Positions 20,449 through 26,624 of a stretch of DNA of 64,000 bases are shown piece after piece. Position 1 is the first letter of the stretch, and the number at the start of each line of letters is the position of its first letter. Source of the stretch: a virus (Duplodnaviria > Heunggongvirae > Uroviricota > Caudoviricetes); IMG/VR virus record IMGVR_UViG_2778261164_000001, positions 20,803-84,802 of that record; one strand, written 5' to 3'. Position numbers and translations under genes: made by a program. The notes beneath the pieces are model-generated. The model worked only from the letters and a program-made list of their open reading frames with translations. It searched no databases and was not told the origin of the DNA.

Positions 20449-20631
20449 AACCGTAAAGCAAAGATTCTGTTAGTTCGTAGAAACGCTCCTGGCGTCTGGC
20501 AGTGGGTGAGACTCAGCAACCGACGGATGGGGTTGATGAAATATTACGGGATGATGGATTGTGGTTTTTGCAAAAAGCCCAGCGCGGCGCAAAACCGCTG
20601 GAAAAACCACTTGCGCACTAAAGGAGAGTGA
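20443..20631 (+). CDS. small basic Cys-containing protein (62 aa), N-terminus MKNRKAK
   Basis: Paralogous start to the previous ORF; CGFC motif. Confidence 0.35.
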   Translation: MKNRKAKILLVRRNAPGVWQWVRLSNRRMGLMKYYGMMDCGFCKKPSAAQNRWKNHLRTKGE

Positions 20632-20632
20632 T

Positions 20633-21148
20633 ATGGCGTTAACACACCGCGAACTCTGTCAGATTGCGTATAAGTTCCTTAAGCGCAACGGGTTCAAGGT
20701 TTGTTTTCATGACCGCTTTATAGCTGTAACCAGTACCGGAGAACAGCCAGATGCTATGGGATTCAGAAATTCAGCATCATGCCTGATAGAGGCGAAGTGT
20801 TCTCGTGCTGACTTGTTGGCAGATAGAAAAAAGCGTTTTCGTAAAAATCCATCTCTTGGAATGGGCGACTGGCGATTCTTTATTAGTGAGCCGGGAATTA
20901 TTTCAGTTGAGGATTTACCACCTGGCTGGGGATTACTTCACGTTGTTAACGGAAGAGTACGGAAAGTACATGGGTGGCCCAAGGGTAATTGCTGTTGGGG
21001 TAATCCTGACGATAAGCCATTTACTGGAAATAAGCAGGTTGAATGCGATTACATGTTATCTGCATTAAGGCGCATGGAGTTGAGAGGGCACCTTAATGAA
21101 ATATATGACGGTGTAATTGTTAATAAGAAAGAAGGAAACGCGGCATGA
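20633..21148 (+). CDS. hypothetical protein
   Basis: ATG at 20633 with AAAGGAGAG RBS (track ORF 20561 trimmed); 171 aa. Confidence 0.5.
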   Translation: MALTHRELCQIAYKFLKRNGFKVCFHDRFIAVTSTGEQPDAMGFRNSASCLIEAKCSRADLLADRKKRFRKNPSLGMGDWRFFISEPGIISVEDLPPGWGLLHVVNGRVRKVHGWPKGNCCWGNPDDKPFTGNKQVECDYMLSALRRMELRGHLNEIYDGVIVNKKEGNAA

Positions 21149-21861
21149 TCACTATTACCAAAGAGCGACTACTGACAATCAAGCAGTGGCGCGAAACATA
21201 CGGACCTGGTAGCAACGTTGTACTGCCAGCAGAAGAGGCGGAAGAACTGGCACGAATTGCGCTGGCATCGCTGGAAGCAGATCCAGTTGCTTATATTTTC
21301 AAACATCCGGCCGGGAAATTATTCTGGTCTTTAACGGATGAAAGCAATAAAGAGCAAGCGGACGTTATTCCTGTTTATGCTGCCGCGCCTGCGTCGGTTG
21401 TGCCGGATAATGCATCAGAGCCTCTTGCTTATGCTTACAAAGAGCTTACGCCTGAGATTATGCGCAACCATTTAGCTGTATTCGAGCGATATGGAATAGC
21501 CCCAAACGATAGCTCTACCACAATTCAGGCACTGCGAATCGCGCTGGATGGCATAGAGCGGAGCGACGCCATGCTTCATGGTGCCGAACCTGTAAGCCAA
21601 ACTTACAAGTTGAACCAGCTATCGGGCAACTCTCCGGCAACTCCGGATGGTTGGATAAGCTGTAGTGAGCGAATGCCGAATACCAAAACAGCCGTTCTTG
21701 TTGCCGTGGAGTTTGACAGGAAAGGTGACTGGCGAATGAAATGGGCTACTTACATCCCCGGGCATCCTGACGCTAATGATGGGTGGATAATTCCTGGTGC
21801 GTCGTGGAAACCGTCACACTGGATGCCGCTACCAGAACCGCCGCAGGAGGTGAATCAATGA
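21145..21861 (+). CDS. protein with DUF551-like C-terminal domain
   Basis: C-terminus ...DGWIIPGASWKPSHWMPLPEPP matches the typical DUF551 ending. Confidence 0.55.
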   Translation: MITITKERLLTIKQWRETYGPGSNVVLPAEEAEELARIALASLEADPVAYIFKHPAGKLFWSLTDESNKEQADVIPVYAAAPASVVPDNASEPLAYAYKELTPEIMRNHLAVFERYGIAPNDSSTTIQALRIALDGIERSDAMLHGAEPVSQTYKLNQLSGNSPATPDGWISCSERMPNTKTAVLVAVEFDRKGDWRMKWATYIPGHPDANDGWIIPGASWKPSHWMPLPEPPQEVNQ

Positions 21862-21943
21862 GCTGGCCTGAAGCATTCACCACGGTAGGAATTGTGATGG
21901 CGGCAGCACTGGGTTTGTATTCAATTTGTCGCTGGTGGTAACG

Positions 21944-22177
21944 ATGGGAAAAATAACTTTTGTAGTCGAATTTGAGGATGGCAAAGAGCCACCTGTTAGC
22001 GCCAATCTTGATGTTGCTGGTGGCAGGCTGGTTTCGGTTCTATTTGGTGATTACCGCGACGACTTCTTTCAGCCTGAAGAAGTTGATGTAGTGCGAGAAG
22101 CATTAAACGAGCTAAGTGTTGATAACGATGATGCTCATGCGGAAATCATCAAAAAAATGGAACTGCTAACTCACTAA
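21944..22177 (+). CDS. small hypothetical acidic protein
   Basis: ATG at 21944 chosen over the TTG at 21926; 77 aa. Confidence 0.4.
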   Translation: MGKITFVVEFEDGKEPPVSANLDVAGGRLVSVLFGDYRDDFFQPEEVDVVREALNELSVDNDDAHAEIIKKMELLTH

Positions 22178-22354
22178 ATTATCAATTATGGTGCTATCAC
22201 CTACGACACCGAGAGAAAATTTATAATGTCAAAAGTAAATGTTTTGATTTTTTCAGCAATTGTTGGCTTTGGTTTTACTGCCGGAGTGCAGATTTATATT
22301 GCGTGGGAAAAAATCATCAACTACGCATGGAGTTGTTTTATTAAGTGAGGTAAG

Positions 22355-22649
22355 TATGTGGAGAGGTAATAGTCATGGCAAAAGCCAGATGATACTTACC
22401 GAATATAAGCTAGACCACAAAACCAATAAATCACGCTCAGTATATTTGCTCCGGCACAATAGCCGCGTAAGAAATACCGTGCTGGAACAAAATCTGACAG
22501 TTGAAATGGATAATTACGGTGGATTCAAGCCAACAATTTCGCTTGATGATTTTCCTCGTGGTTTAAGCGAAAGAGAAGCAATGCTGAAATTAGCAGAATG
22601 GCTACAAAGATTAAGCATTGCTATTGAAGATAACTGGTCTGAACCTTAA
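22355..22649 (+). CDS. hypothetical protein
   Basis: ATG at 22355 with GAGG RBS; the track ORF start at 22260 lacks support. Confidence 0.4.
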
Positions 22650-22655
22650 ATTTAT

Positions 22656-23030
22656 ATGATGACACTAAAACATTTTCTTGACCGCCCATTATGGGCGGCA
22701 GCCGCAGGCTATGACTTTAATTATATGGATTGCATGTCTTATACTGCCAATGCATACGACCATTCGTTCAGCCTGCTGTTTAATTCTTTAAGAATATTGC
22801 CGGAAACAGAAGTTGGAGAGCTTCATTTATGGATATTGGGCTTTATCGCGGCTGTCGTTGGTATTGCTGTATGGCCTTTTATTTTCTGGCTGGTGGCTGT
22901 TGTAGTGTGGTTTAAGTGCAAGACATACCGGAGAAAGTATTTCTTAGGTGATGGAATGACCGATATTGCCAAAATGAACATTGAAAAATGGACTAAGGAA
23001 TGTGAAAAGAAATGGCGCAAAAAGAAATGA
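22656..23030 (+). CDS. membrane protein
   Basis: 124 aa; hydrophobic segment LWILGFIAAVVGIAVWPFIFWLVAVVVWF; Lys-rich C-terminus. Confidence 0.45.
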   Translation: MMTLKHFLDRPLWAAAAGYDFNYMDCMSYTANAYDHSFSLLFNSLRILPETEVGELHLWILGFIAAVVGIAVWPFIFWLVAVVVWFKCKTYRRKYFLGDGMTDIAKMNIEKWTKECEKKWRKKK

Positions 23031-23686
23031 CTACTCTAACGACAGCATACTTACAGCAATTGGTATTTTTTGCAGGCGAGGCTACTTGTCATCCTGACGC
23101 AAACTATTTATTGGAATTTGAGAGGTTAGCGTCACCCGGTATCGTTCTGGAACTGGCCCAACAGGTGCTGGCCTTGAGACAAAAAGAGCAACATGAAAGT
23201 AATACGTGTAGATTGAATTTTGAGCAGTGGCTGGAACAGCAACGCGGAAAAATCGATGTGGACTGTGGTTGTGTGTCCACTGAAACATTCATGCACTGGC
23301 TGCGGGTAGCTTACGAGGCTGGCAACTATCCGGATATTCCGGATAGTTCGGTGCCAGCGCCAGGAAAGGGCGTCACCGGTGAACGTATCCGCATTAAGCC
23401 GCATGTTTATCGCGAACTGGTTAACCGTCTCCACGATACAGCGATCAAGTGTGCTGGCACCCAGCAATTACGAGAAAGAATTAGCCGTGTTTTGGGCGAC
23501 GTTATTACGCCAGATCATCATAAACAAGCCGAGAAAAGTGACCTGGAAAGGTGTCACCTTGAGGCGGCATTAAACATTAAGCCGGGGCATACGCTTGGCA
23601 TTATCGATGCTCTGTTGGTTCATAAGATGGCCAGGGCTTTATTGTCGTTGGTGGACGCTGGTGATACAAGCGAGGGTGAAGTATGA
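23012..23686 (+). CDS. hypothetical protein
   Basis: 224-aa ORF overlapping the upstream gene end. Confidence 0.5.
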   Translation: MAQKEMTTLTTAYLQQLVFFAGEATCHPDANYLLEFERLASPGIVLELAQQVLALRQKEQHESNTCRLNFEQWLEQQRGKIDVDCGCVSTETFMHWLRVAYEAGNYPDIPDSSVPAPGKGVTGERIRIKPHVYRELVNRLHDTAIKCAGTQQLRERISRVLGDVITPDHHKQAEKSDLERCHLEAALNIKPGHTLGIIDALLVHKMARALLSLVDAGDTSEGEV

Positions 23687-24045
23687 GAGTTGCAGATCAC
23701 ATCAAACACCTTGAAAGAATTATCGAAAACGGTGAACTCTTAAGAGATCAGATGAGACGCACGGCAGAAGCCAGGGAGGCGATAATCCGCAGTCAGGCTG
23801 GTAAATTAAAGCAATTGTCAGAGATTAACACGCTATACAAGAACAGACGTAACCGGGCGGTGATGCGGCTTCAGAAAGCACGTAATGAAATTAAATTGGT
23901 GGAGGCAAAACTGAAAAAACAGATCCAGCGTTACGATCAGCAAGATGCTTTTTATGCCGCCATCAAGGCGGCTGCTAATGAAATAGGCATCTGGAAGTTG
24001 CTGGTGGAGAAAGCAAAGACGAAGTTAAATGCCAACGAAAGCTGA
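23683..24045 (+). CDS. hypothetical coiled-coil protein (last gene of the rightward operon)
   Basis: 120-aa ORF with ATGA overlap; Lys/Glu/Arg-rich heptads. Confidence 0.5.
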   Translation: MRVADHIKHLERIIENGELLRDQMRRTAEAREAIIRSQAGKLKQLSEINTLYKNRRNRAVMRLQKARNEIKLVEAKLKKQIQRYDQQDAFYAAIKAAANEIGIWKLLVEKAKTKLNANES

Positions 24046-24120
24046 ACTACAGGTGCCCACCAGCACATACAGAAAATGATTGTTTCCACATCAAGGAGAT
24101 TTTAATGTTTCACTGAAACA

Positions 24121-24258
24121 TTAAGTAAGCCAGTGCATAATTCCATTTTTTACTGACCTTAAAAGCAAAATCAAAACGATGATGAGGATAATAGCCAGAA
24201 TCTGGCTAATAATAGGCGCATCTAAAAATGCACTCAGGAACTGAAAAAAAGCGTTCAT
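24121..24258 (-). CDS. 45-aa hydrophobic peptide (MNAFFQFLSAFLDAPIISQILAIILIIVLILLLRSVKNGIMHWLT)
   Basis: ATG-to-TAA frame on the minus strand inside an otherwise non-coding AT-rich stretch; single predicted TM helix; no clear RBS. Confidence 0.3.
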   Translation of the reverse strand: MNAFFQFLSAFLDAPIISQILAIILIIVLILLLRSVKNGIMHWLT

Positions 24259-25119
24259 TCAGGTGGTTCCTTGTCAAATGTAAAGGTGCACTTGCTCACG
24301 TTGACGTAGAAACCCAACCCCTATATAGTTGGATTCGGTGAATGAAAGTCGTTAACGTGAGCTTACGGCACATGTTTTCGGAAAAACATCAGGGAACGGC
24401 TAATTCCTTGATGCGGGTGGGGTCTGTAATGCAGACCCTATCTATTAACGTCATGATTGCATCTCAAATTTTCTCCTTATCTTCAATTAATCTACATTCA
24501 TTTCATCTGTTAGCCACCACAATATGTAGAAAATGGCCCTCTTGCAAGTGCATAACTTTGTGGATAACTCAGGAAGGAAAAAGTGGCTTTCGCGCACCTT
24601 CGGTCAGACAAGGTGTCCGGGAAAGTCAACGCAAAGAAAAAATTGTTAAAAATAACGTTTGTTGGAATTGTATATTTTTATCCCCTTCAATGGTTAGCAT
24701 TCTATTAACATCTTTTTTTAGAGACAGAAAAACATATCGTAACAACATATATACAGTATTAAGAGGCGAGTATTATCCTGCGGTGGGAATTCTGGGCGCT
24801 GTTAGATTCGACTTTCTCAGCAGGATTACATCGTCAACTTGCGACGTTGCCGTATGACTTTCGTGTAATAGGTGACAATGATGCGGCTAGTGAGTTACTT
24901 GTGAAGTTTTTCGGAAAAGGTTTTGTGGCCTCGGATCTTGATGAGCTACAGCAACATGAAGTGTCTAATTTGATTTTTAGCCATAGCCAATAAGCCTCCC
25001 TCCTCCATCAAGGCCACAATTTGTGACCTTAAACAATTTGTTTTCTGCTTTTTCTTATTTGAGAAAATAACGTTGTTGACAGCTAATAGGCTCGTTGTTG
25101 TTATACATGCCTGTATAGA

Positions 25120-25476
25120 TTATGACCGTAAATTATTAGCGGATTTTAAGCCATATTCACCGTTGTAGAAATTACTCATGTTCCATTCATTAGGAAGTTC
25201 TTTTCTGTCCAATGTATAGTGGCGCACGATATAACGATCTTCATCTTCTTCGATGGACAGGCGGACATAGCCAATGTGAATCACCGATACGGGCGGTGTT
25301 CGTATTGCATAGATGTCGCGGAGATATACCGGCAGCTCGACAAATGCATCAGGTGCATCTGTGATGCTCGTTTTTTCACAGTATTCATATAACGCATCGT
25401 TGATATCGTTAAGAGATTCATGATCGTATATTTCCAGGTAATTACCGCGATCGCGATGGTACTCGATTTTAGCCAT
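25120..25476 (-). CDS. hypothetical protein (second gene of a leftward pair)
   Basis: 118-aa ORF; its ATG abuts the upstream stop. Confidence 0.5.
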   Translation of the reverse strand: MAKIEYHRDRGNYLEIYDHESLNDINDALYEYCEKTSITDAPDAFVELPVYLRDIYAIRTPPVSVIHIGYVRLSIEEDEDRYIVRHYTLDRKELPNEWNMSNFYNGEYGLKSANNLRS

Positions 25477-26234: not shown

Positions 26235-26624
26235 ATGGGCTTCCCTTCTCCTGCGGCGGATTATGTTGAAAGCCGAATTTCTCTTGATCAGCAACTAATC
26301 AGGCATCCATCAGCAACCTACTTCATGCGGGCAGCTGATAGCCATCACCGTGAGGGAATATTGCAGGGTGCTTTGCTGGTGGTTGATTCTTCGCTTACTC
26401 CAGTTGATGGTTCGCTGCTTGTGTGCGCTATGGAGGGTGAATATCGCATAAAGAGATACCGAAAGTATCCGCGCCAGCACCTGGAGGATTTAAGCACCGG
26501 GAAGAAAGAGGCGTTACCAGTAGATGACGATGGATGCACGGGCAGTAATGCTGTGTTTGGTGTGATCACTCATGTCATTAATGATGCCCGAAGTGGGGAA
26601 TTTGATGATTGTCCGGTGATTTAA
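26235..26624 (+). CDS. humD: UmuD-like translesion synthesis accessory protein
   Basis: LexA/UmuD peptidase S24-like fold without the N-terminal cleavage arm; GAGGTG RBS; SOS box upstream. Confidence 0.85.
   Translation: MGFPSPAADYVESRISLDQQLIRHPSATYFMRAADSHHREGILQGALLVVDSSLTPVDGSLLVCAMEGEYRIKRYRKYPRQHLEDLSTGKKEALPVDDDGCTGSNAVFGVITHVINDARSGEFDDCPVI

Follow-up and report, generated by a model that had tools for sequence, protein, structure and literature searches.

What is encoded in the roughly 1 kb of DNA that lies between the end of a long rightward accessory operon and a leftward gene pair in a P7-type phage of the P1 family? The question is raised by a 64,000-nt stretch (hereafter the window, numbered from its first letter) of the IMG/VR virus record IMGVR_UViG_2778261164_000001, positions 20,803 to 84,802, which belongs to a P7/P1-type phage-plasmid. 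Over 23900–25300 the window is 99.9% identical to phage P7 (IS903 excepted), the sole difference being an IS903 insertion after ~24865 in P7, and it is 99.7–99.8% identical to several 'P1' and SJ46 records. An original prediction made from the sequence alone had described the interval 24046–25119 as AT-rich, as indeed it mildly is (GC 0.36–0.42 vs 0.45–0.52 in the flanks), and had offered a type I toxin–antitoxin system, a small-RNA locus or a decayed scar as explanations. The interval is in fact a composite of a conserved module (24050–24600) and a recombination scar (24600–25119). The first two explanations fit the left half in architecture and conservation and the third describes the right half; what did not survive is the antisense element then proposed, as the actual candidate antisense promoter lies elsewhere, at 24301–24329. 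A host-derived nrdA/DnaA-box promoter directed toward the peptide open reading frame (ORF) had also been missed. The left half is read here, tentatively and with somewhat less than even confidence, as type I toxin–antitoxin-like, that is, as a module in which an nrdA-type promoter would drive an inert mRNA for a membrane-active peptide, silenced by a constitutive ~110-nt cis-antisense RNA.

A small predicted membrane-peptide gene opposite the annotated frames

The module is found in three lineages of phage-plasmids, the P7 type, the P1 type and the SSU5 type. P1-type elements match 24046–24600 at 95–96% identity; P1 proper shares with the window only the first ~550 bp (24046–24597, 96% identity), after which it runs into a late promoter and the hot gene and the window differs. 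In SSU5-type plasmids, e.g. CP082122, which carries apbC and metG, the match is ~78% and the module is flanked by a type I restriction-modification system on one side and hot on the other. A further copy resides on an IncFIB plasmid. Among the complete E. coli genomes, 216 of 5,426 contain the module, which is plasmid-borne in 222 of 223 places. Two scans of species-representative genomes gave zero matches, and 52 IMG/VR loci, 20 metagenome loci and a plasmid blastn search contained no lineage beyond these three and their recombinants.

Within the module, a minus-strand ORF running from ATG to TAA stands exactly where the original prediction had placed it, at 24121–24258. Its 45-residue product (MNAFFQFLSAFLDAPIISQILAIILIIVLILLLRSVKNGIMHWLT) is strongly hydrophobic (grand average of hydropathy (GRAVY) 1.56; 11-residue hydropathy maximum 4.0) and consists of a single hydrophobic span of ~20–30 residues, then RSVK, then a 12-residue polar tail, in keeping with the small (<60 amino acids), hydrophobic, membrane-targeting toxin ORF of a generic type I toxin–antitoxin system. 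The length of the ORF alone is unremarkable, with 3 ORFs of at least 45 amino acids observed vs 2.7 in shuffles of the region, and its meaning therefore rests on comparison with relatives. Whether the ORF is conserved there, a question raised with the original prediction, can be answered in the affirmative: ATG, frame, length and stop are common to the P7-, P1- and SSU5-type copies, some of the SSU5-type copies having an additional in-frame start codon 5' of the annotated ATG. Between the window and the SSU5 type, the ORF DNA is 76–78% identical without indels, and substitutions in the SSU5-type peptide (MIVFFQFLSAFLNAPVLSQVLAIVFIVVLIWFFKSVINRGVRWLI) are mostly I/V, L/F and R/K, with hydrophobicity retained and a dN/dS of 0.41–0.44. 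In a neutral simulation, with 33 substitutions drawn from the observed base-change spectrum, the ORF remained intact in 11% of runs, intact with at most 19 amino-acid changes in 4.9%, intact with retained hydrophobicity in 0.75%, and satisfied all three jointly in 0.35% (p ~0.0035). It is the only ORF of more than 25 codons to preserve frame and stop in every lineage, and it is intact in 66/66 translatable full-length copies (68 collected). On this comparative evidence, it is concluded that the 45-amino-acid ORF is a real gene, held under protein-level constraint in three lineages.

This conserved gene occupies the minus strand, opposite to the annotated upfM, upfN and upfO. PGAP names it 'hypothetical protein' WP_000123562.1 in some plasmids, and the P1 and P7 records are without it. 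The P1 annotation already contains upfM, upfN, upfO, an 'nrdA-like promoter', a DnaA box and a predicted promoter, PupfN; the connection from promoter through leader to ORF, opposed by PupfN, is not drawn in the records or papers searched. Coding on the + strand (upfM, upfN, upfO and a 171-amino-acid ORF) was ruled out by indels and by the lack of conservation. The upfM frame is without counterpart in the SSU5 type, the frames of P1 upfM/upfN/upfO (upf91.3–91.7 of P7) are not conserved among relatives, and the upfN-equivalent frame measures 65 amino acids in P1, 102 in P7 (upf91.4) and 171 in the window. The last of these, at 24342–24857, had been called unconvincing in the original prediction and is indeed spurious, having no family match and suffering 1-nt and 19-nt indels between lineages. 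The broader statement that the interval holds no convincing protein gene is thus correct for that frame but not for the interval, where a conserved small ORF, a host promoter piece and a gene fragment are all present. CRISPR interference and deletion screens have found upfN and upfO, both in this interval, to be dispensable for lytic growth; a toxin–antitoxin module would be expected to behave likewise. In the papers searched, the interval is linked to no small RNA, small protein or toxin.

Searches of the peptide against Pfam, NCBIfam, PHROGs and PADLOC returned noise only (best phrog_1184, E 0.058). Word-index and exhaustive HMMER searches of 1.84 billion representative proteins found only four homologues (P0001–P0004), all from the module's own lineages, two P1-type and two SSU5-type, with C-termini that are frameshifted or interrupted. 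The intact 45-residue form is mostly uncalled by gene finders, and natural variants sometimes lack the C-terminal tail. Separately, the K. pneumoniae IncFII plasmid pNDM4-191773 (L063) carries at 2492–2593, on its + strand, an unannotated 33-amino-acid ORF (MVLLLDAFLSAPLLSQCAATVFLLLLIWLKKME) that has an AFLxAPxLSQ motif and a ACAAGGAA...ATG start context in common with the P1/SSU5-type peptide (tblastn E 0.1); it is present in ~30 near-identical plasmids only, with no diverged copies by which kinship might be judged.

Promoters, leader and a candidate antisense RNA

The ORF is preceded on the minus strand by a leader of ~250 nt, which follows a promoter assembled in part from host DNA (Table 1). 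Record M95666 annotates this 'nrdA-like promoter' on the minus strand. In many E. coli chromosomes the region upstream of ypaB/nrdA is matched at 100% identity by 72 nt of the window (24529–24600), and the nrdA piece finds a match, under ypaB, in 5,426 of 5,426 E. coli genomes. Alignment with the region upstream of K-12 nrdA places both DnaA boxes and the -35 hexamer in native order and orientation. Collinearity ends just before the -10, which reads TATTGT in the window and TACTGT in the SSU5 type, the host TATCTT occurring only in Cyrano, an SSU5-type phage. At the nrdAB operon of E. coli, these boxes are the sites of DnaA action; the promoter is regulated with the cell cycle and induced upon replication block, and the sequence downstream of the promoter holds NrdR-binding sites. 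Homology stops before both the native -10 and that downstream sequence. The module may inherit part of the cell-cycle and replication control of nrdAB. Alignment of the interval to a known regulatory element had been named beforehand as a result that would speak against the original prediction. Such an alignment exists for these 72 nt; it strengthens the case for an expressed module rather than refuting it. The nrdA pieces of the P1 and SSU5 types are clearly more diverged, 5' of the DnaA boxes, than that of the P7 type, whose complete identity to the host suggests that the phage copy was re-converted by the host chromosome.

Downstream of this promoter lies the most conserved part of the module, a non-coding block of 187 nt that on the minus strand would form the leader of the peptide mRNA and on the + strand contains a candidate antisense gene. 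The block is 89–93% identical between window and SSU5 type and 91% identical between P1 and SSU5 type, a comparison in which the adjacent hot coding sequence reaches 88%. Conserved and diverged segments alternate along the module. Between the window and the SSU5 type on the minus strand, the promoter with its DnaA boxes is 92% identical (88–92% across the compared lineages); the spacer from promoter to block falls to 43% with a 19-nt indel, and the spacer from block to ORF to 61%. The 3' flank of the ORF is at 55–59% in this pair and at 55–63% across the compared lineages. A non-coding block conserved at least as well as a real gene, between spacers at neutral-looking divergence, argues for selection and not for a single recent transfer.

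The block contains a second, candidate promoter, directed away from the ORF, which corresponds to PupfN of P1. TTGACG-17-TATAGT matches consensus at 10 of 12 positions and is the best sigma-70-like site both in the window region and in a 78%-identical SSU5-type copy (L007); it is the single site that the promoter scans of the two have in common, and both hexamers are invariant in all lineages. The + strand promoters P1upfM and P2upfM, in or beside the 3' end of the ORF, were considered and rejected; one of the pair (CTGAAA-17-CATAAT) is listed for the window, whereas the SSU5-type scan does not list its counterpart, in which the -10 is lost. The candidate RNA from PupfN is predicted to fold into three stem-loops over ~110 nt. 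For 24336–24450 the fold energy is -43.2 kcal/mol (z -4.9) and for the SSU5-type version -37.5 kcal/mol (z -4.6); the exact complements are 13–14 kcal/mol weaker in both lineages (z -3.4 and -3.1), a difference owed largely to the 8 G-U pairs among the 35 of the consensus. Between lineages the loops of the + strand RNA vary and a few pairs break, and the U-tail (UAUCUAUU) is weak. Conservation of the block reaches ~40 nt past the last + strand hairpin, into the minus-strand Shine–Dalgarno (SD)–ATG region, and it also spans sequence upstream of the + strand start, where it covers the left arm of a hairpin that belongs to the minus strand only.

The minus-strand RNA, 463 nt in length, likewise folds better than chance (z -3.8). 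At its 3' end a hairpin spans the stop codon of the ORF and is preserved in the SSU5-type copy with one U-A to C-G double change. The minimum-energy structure of the 463-nt RNA joins UCCUUGAUG, just past this hairpin, to CAUCAAGGA of the leader in a 9-bp 5'–3' fold-back. In the consensus fold an upstream GUUCC pairs with the SD region (GGAAC); in the SSU5 type two of these pairs are broken and one shows a double change from G-C to A-U. A long leader hairpin has arms CUCACGUUAACG / CGUCAACGUGAG, which flank the opposing promoter, and an inner stem AUCCAAC / GUUGGGU; its z is -3.2 in the window and -1.6 in L007, and variation is confined to the loop. The leader also contains mini-ORFs of 21 and 25 codons, kept in position in all lineages with substitutions that give no sign of protein-level constraint; the leader frames end 38 nt short of the 45-amino-acid ORF, without overlap. 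At the 5' edge of the block a canonical start region precedes a 3-codon frame, replaced in the SSU5 type by a bare start-stop, ATG TAA. The frame that follows AAGGAG abuts the ATG of the 21-codon mini-ORF, an arrangement reminiscent of start-stop or reinitiation control elements.

Table 1. Coordinates of features in and around the interval 24046–25119 (positions in the window; RBS, ribosome-binding site).
Feature	Position	Strand	Remarks
pmgV homologue (upf90.8)	23683–24045	+	left neighbour of the interval
Stop-codon hairpin UUAAUGUUUCA-GUG-AAACAUUAA	24098–24124	-	z -4.7
45-amino-acid single-transmembrane peptide ORF, candidate toxin	24121–24258	-	ATG to TAA; frame kept across lineages
Shine–Dalgarno AAGGAA	24267–24272	-	8 nt 5' of the ORF ATG; GAGGA at the matching place in SSU5 type
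Ultraconserved non-coding block, 187 nt	24295–24481	both	peptide mRNA leader (-); candidate antisense gene (+)
25-codon mini-ORF	24296–24373	-	almost coextensive with long leader hairpin
Candidate antisense promoter, P1 PupfN	24301–24329	+	TTGACG-17-TATAGT; TATAGT at 24324–24329
Candidate antisense RNA, ~110 nt, three stem-loops	24336–24447	+	predicted fold; 3' end uncertain
21-codon mini-ORF	24454–24389	-	start overlaps 3-codon ORF by ATGA; start and stop same in all lineages
Core hairpin GGGTCTG/CAGACCC	24420–24438	+	GC-rich; one compensatory U-A to C-G change between lineages
3-codon ORF (ATG CAA TCA TGA), P1 and P7 types	ATG 24462–24460 (frame 24451–24462)	-	follows AAGGAG
AAGGAG start region	24478–24473	-	5' edge of block; AAGGAG-N10-ATG, conserved
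nrdA-type promoter toward peptide ORF	24519–24547	-	-35 TTGCAA 24547–24542, 17 nt, -10 TATTGT 24524–24519
Captured host DNA	24529–24665	-	collinear with ypaB/nrdA upstream, ~135–150 nt in all
Two DnaA boxes	24547–24567	-	TTATCCACA (24567–24559), TTATGCACT (24555–24547); invariant in all lineages
umuD-like leader remnant, SSU5 type	24600–24776	+	half LexA box, RBS, without ATG
Toprim/primase-like gene 3' fragment, last 66 codons	24777–24993	+	parent gene 174 amino acids
3' flank of Toprim-like gene with decayed terminator-like hairpin	24994–25071	+	hairpin AAGGCCAC-aattt-GTGACCTT, 25010–25030
TTGACA hexamer	25076–25081	+	named in the original prediction; no support
upf93.6, 118 amino acids	25120–25476	leftward	right neighbour of the interval
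lxr-like gene, 194 amino acids	25477–26061	leftward	beyond upf93.6

The toxin–antitoxin reading and its rivals

A membrane-peptide ORF, a structured leader and a candidate antisense promoter firing away from the ORF together match the layout of the ldr/rdl loci of E. coli K-12, and it is on this match that the proposed mechanism is modelled. The nrdA-type promoter would yield a minus-strand mRNA of ~460 nt, whose synthesis would be tied to host DnaA and to replication status. This mRNA would be kept translationally quiet by its own fold (leader hairpin, pairing of the SD with its anti-SD, 5'–3' fold-back), and the leader mini-ORFs might gate the access of ribosomes. From the + strand promoter, an antisense RNA of ~110 nt would pair with the leader 78–190 nt upstream of the start codon, comparable to Rdl, and pairing over the mini-ORF start regions would either block peptide expression or trigger cleavage of the mRNA. 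The peptide, if made, would be expected to insert into the inner membrane and to inhibit growth. The sequence analysis shows the conservation, the ORF constraint, the capture of the host promoter, the promoter motifs and the fold statistics; synthesis of either RNA, toxicity of the peptide and its neutralisation by the RNA belong to the proposed mechanism.

The resemblance to ldr/rdl extends to several features. In both, a small hydrophobic peptide has an 'AP' core in its helix (LDAPIISQIL here vs LAAPILAGII), the leader is long and structured, and the antisense gene on the other strand, here a candidate, runs away from the toxin start so that its RNA would pair with the leader rather than the coding region; the distance from the toxin start codon up to the antisense start is 48 nt for ldrA and rdlA and ~78 nt for the candidate here. 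The Ldr toxin, however, has 35 residues vs the 45 here, the ldr loci are chromosomal long direct repeats rather than parts of phage-plasmids, and only the module combines its gene with a captured nrdA/DnaA-box promoter, its toxicity and antisense RNA being candidate properties only. Kinship to Ldr was rejected as a sequence relationship: an hhalign probability of 2.5% over 10 columns makes the peptide no demonstrable member of that family. With hok/sok the module has in common a plasmid habitat, a long structured mRNA with a predicted 5'–3' fold-back, a candidate antisense promoter within the leader, upstream leader frames that could gate translation in the manner of mok, and a very highly conserved regulatory region; unlike hok/sok, it has no Hok/Gef domain and no match to Sok RNA, and its mini-ORFs are separate from the ORF (38-nt gap). 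As in tisB/istR-1 and dinQ/agrB, a small membrane peptide is combined with a promoter linked to the state of DNA replication or DNA damage, and the module adjoins the LexA-controlled lxr-like gene and humD, with a LexA box at the syntenic spot in relatives. The differences here are the DnaA-box nrdA-type promoter in place of a LexA box, an antisense candidate that overlaps in cis rather than being divergent, and the lack of any sequence or Rfam match. Rfam at a permissive threshold (E up to 1) gave no match on either strand of the window region or its relatives, and as a positive control it did find AgrB beside DqlB, a DinQ-like toxin, in a control plasmid (L064). To judge from these sequence comparisons, the module has the layout of a type I toxin–antitoxin system, yet it falls in no described family.

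Several points weigh against the toxin–antitoxin reading. The dN/dS of ~0.4 is merely moderate, and a peptide of 45 residues with a 12-residue polar tail stands at the long end for type I toxins. The resemblance to Ldr is confined to a 10-residue motif, with no match to Pfam Ldr_toxin, NCBIfam or Rfam RdlD, and Hok/Gef, TisB, DinQ/DqlB, ShoB, Ibs and ZorO gave no Pfam or NCBIfam match at E up to 10. Measured against consensus, the nrdA-type promoter scores weakly (8/12, unlisted in the scan), the host -10 having been lost, and no canonical U-rich terminator ends the candidate antisense RNA, for which the terminator scan makes no call. Covariation across related elements, a check suggested with the original prediction, is present in the form of compensatory changes but is limited by the three lineages to one or two pairs per strand, so that the structural evidence for both RNAs is suggestive and not conclusive. 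Because the block serves as a recombination joint (see below), gene conversion may also have added to its uniformity. More generally, all functional steps are predictions from sequence, and the comparative depth of three lineages is shallow.

The chief rival, itself rather unlikely, is a benign 'moron' encoding a small membrane protein, such as a modulator of host membrane proteins or an exclusion factor, for which the leader would be a cis-regulatory 5' untranslated region (UTR) with mini-ORFs and the opposing promoter would be unused or would merely dampen expression. Conservation of both ORF and leader, the lack of similarity to any toxin family, the missing clear terminator of the candidate antisense RNA, the canonical AAGGAG–ATG start region at the 5' edge of the leader and the persistence in nature of variants with C-terminal frameshifts all favour such a gene. 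A cis-acting UTR alone, however, seldom needs 91% identity over 187 nt, more than a neighbouring gene retains; nor does this explanation account readily for an opposing promoter that scores best in both divergent copies with invariant hexamers, or for a + strand whose fold, over one and the same interval, is clearly superior to that of the mRNA strand.

The same + strand fold, strong and strand-specific, together with the invariant promoter and the fact that the block and not the ORF is most conserved, lends some appeal to the idea that a + strand small RNA is the main product, acting on trans targets in host or phage or by interference with the nrdA-type promoter, with the ORF secondary or incidental. 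This is improbable: the frame, length and hydrophobicity of the ORF are kept beyond neutral expectation, conservation of the block extends past both ends of the + strand RNA, and that RNA is without the terminator and U-tail typical of Hfq-dependent small RNAs.

A role at the level of DNA, which we consider quite improbable, must be weighed in the light of the module's mobility. The module transfers as a unit between P1-type and SSU5-type backbones. A natural chimera is seen in the E. coli UTME-7 plasmid pUTME-7-2 (L067; 2440–3020, vs window 24040–24620), whose promoter and block are of the P7 type and hardly differ from those of the window; its spacer, peptide ORF and 3' hairpin, which follow exactly where the block ends (after CGTCAACGTGAG, window ~24295), are of the SSU5 type. 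The block acts as a homologous-recombination joint between two phage-plasmid families. Under the DNA-level explanation, the nrdA piece, DnaA boxes and inverted repeats would be binding or recombination sites (for DnaA titration, as an operator or as an exchange hot spot), kept by conversion, and the RNAs and ORF would be functionless. The crossover of the UTME-7 chimera exactly at the block edge, the 72 nt identical to the host chromosome, the occurrence of the DnaA-box piece in SSU5-type phages without the peptide module and the 12-nt arms CTCACGTTGACG / CGTTAACGTGAG on either side of the promoter all accord with it. It leaves unexplained the retention of the ORF, the compensatory hairpin changes and the conserved SD–ATG motifs; a plasmid at one or two copies should titrate little DnaA; and the alternation of conserved and diverged segments every 40–190 nt would need many precisely placed conversion tracts. 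That the whole 1 kb is decayed junk between operons is very improbable. In its favour are the scar on the right, the lack of conservation of the annotated upf ORFs and the dispensability of the interval for lytic growth, but the conservation pattern of the left half in three lineages and its movement as a unit exclude this for the left half.

Returning to the toxin–antitoxin reading, mobility as a unit and a plasmid habitat are compatible with an addiction or stress module. It is enticing, though doubtful in its full extent, to speculate that the P1 and SSU5 families carry an unrecognised type I toxin–antitoxin family, in which a captured nrdA promoter, re-converted by the host in the P7 type, reads the state of replication initiation or stress and feeds a membrane toxin that a cis-antisense RNA restrains. 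The study of plasmid addiction was founded on the phd/doc pair of P1, a textbook phage and among the best studied, and, if true, a second addiction or stress module would lie ~2.5 kb from that pair. Such an RNA-controlled toxin module, unannotated so far, would correct the P1 reference annotation by a gene opposite upfM, upfN and upfO. It would also represent a new toxin family in ~4% of complete E. coli genomes, carried by phage-plasmids that disseminate resistance genes as well, and a clean case in which a mobile element has copied a cell-cycle promoter of its host for the timing of a gene of its own. Should the module prove to be merely a small membrane-protein gene, it would still be a real conserved gene absent from the reference records.

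The right half and the surrounding neighbourhood

Alignments with SSU5-type phages make the right half, 24600–25119, demonstrably a recombination scar of SSU5-type origin, apparently non-functional, with 24600–25071 as the debris of the exchange. The umuD-like gene of Cyrano has a leader to which the segment 24529–24776 can be aligned; there, the DnaA-box segment precedes, in turn, a perfect LexA box (TACTGTATGTGTATACAGTA), an RBS (AAGAGG) and the ATG of umuD. In the window, an 11-nt deletion took the left half-site, leaving a half LexA box ATACAGTA at 24751–24758 and the RBS AAGAGG at 24761–24766, so that the copy at 24740–24776 is not an intact CTGT-N8-ACAG SOS box with RBS and start; the functional humD copy stands further right, at 26235. 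At a CCTGCGG/GCGG microhomology the umuD leader joins a gene fragment, whose frame (24763–24993) matches PHROG 17952 (phrog_17952, 'DNA primase') at 6.5e-39 and which is 88% identical in amino acids to residues 109–174 of XSB42472.1 (174 amino acids) from the SSU5-type phage PhiR41_1. That protein carries a faint DnaG/Toprim-like signal, and its gene is the last in an Ea22/EaA accessory operon, just 5' of the umuD-like gene. It is inside this Toprim-like fragment that the IS903 of P7 sits. The relic at 24761–24993 (+) consists of the RBS AAGAGG, then ATT ATC CTG in place of ATG, and 70-odd in-frame codons, and may be weakly translated from a non-canonical start. Beyond the fragment, 24994–25071 is common to PhiR41_1, CMS-2020a, SSU5 and pJN2-26, the terminator-like hairpin having one stem mismatch in the window. 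The interest of the right half is limited to the trace it preserves of exchange between P1-type and SSU5-type phage-plasmids.

Near the right end lies the TTGACA that the original prediction had taken for the -35 of a promoter that could make antisense RNA into the 118-amino-acid gene. The hexamer exists, at 25076–25081 rather than 25075–25080, but its promoter role found no support. The best -10 is TGTTAT (25099–25104), with 4/6 matching positions and no A at position 2; the site is missing from the output of the promoter scan, in which promoter-like sites in the region are below chance (3 vs 4.1 expected). The 118-amino-acid gene is known only in copies at least 99% identical, so that comparison says nothing on conservation of the TTGACA. 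The hexamer is a chance match.

Past the lxr-like gene follow a LexA box and then humD, phd and doc. On the other side, the rightward accessory operon at ~20500–24045, Ead/Ea22/EaA-like in the P7 annotation, has counterparts before the umuD-like gene of SSU5-type phages (L004 and L005), and the P1/P7-type and SSU5-type families thus have in common the whole variable neighbourhood of an accessory operon followed by SOS genes. At the syntenic spot before its umuD-like gene, Cyrano (L005, 3390–3960, minus strand) carries the nrdA-type promoter with the host -10 TATCTT. Past that promoter come a strong bidirectional terminator AAAAAGCCCAGTTGACTAGGCTGGGCTTTTT and two GCCAGATACTTA(C/T)GGC repeats. 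A different short hydrophobic ORF is present at 3445–3540 (...MVNLLFKIVPPMFAIIKAIIEYVNQRP), with its own terminator and no match in NCBIfam or Rfam; judged from its sequence, this ORF may represent a further small-toxin-like cassette occupying this hot spot.

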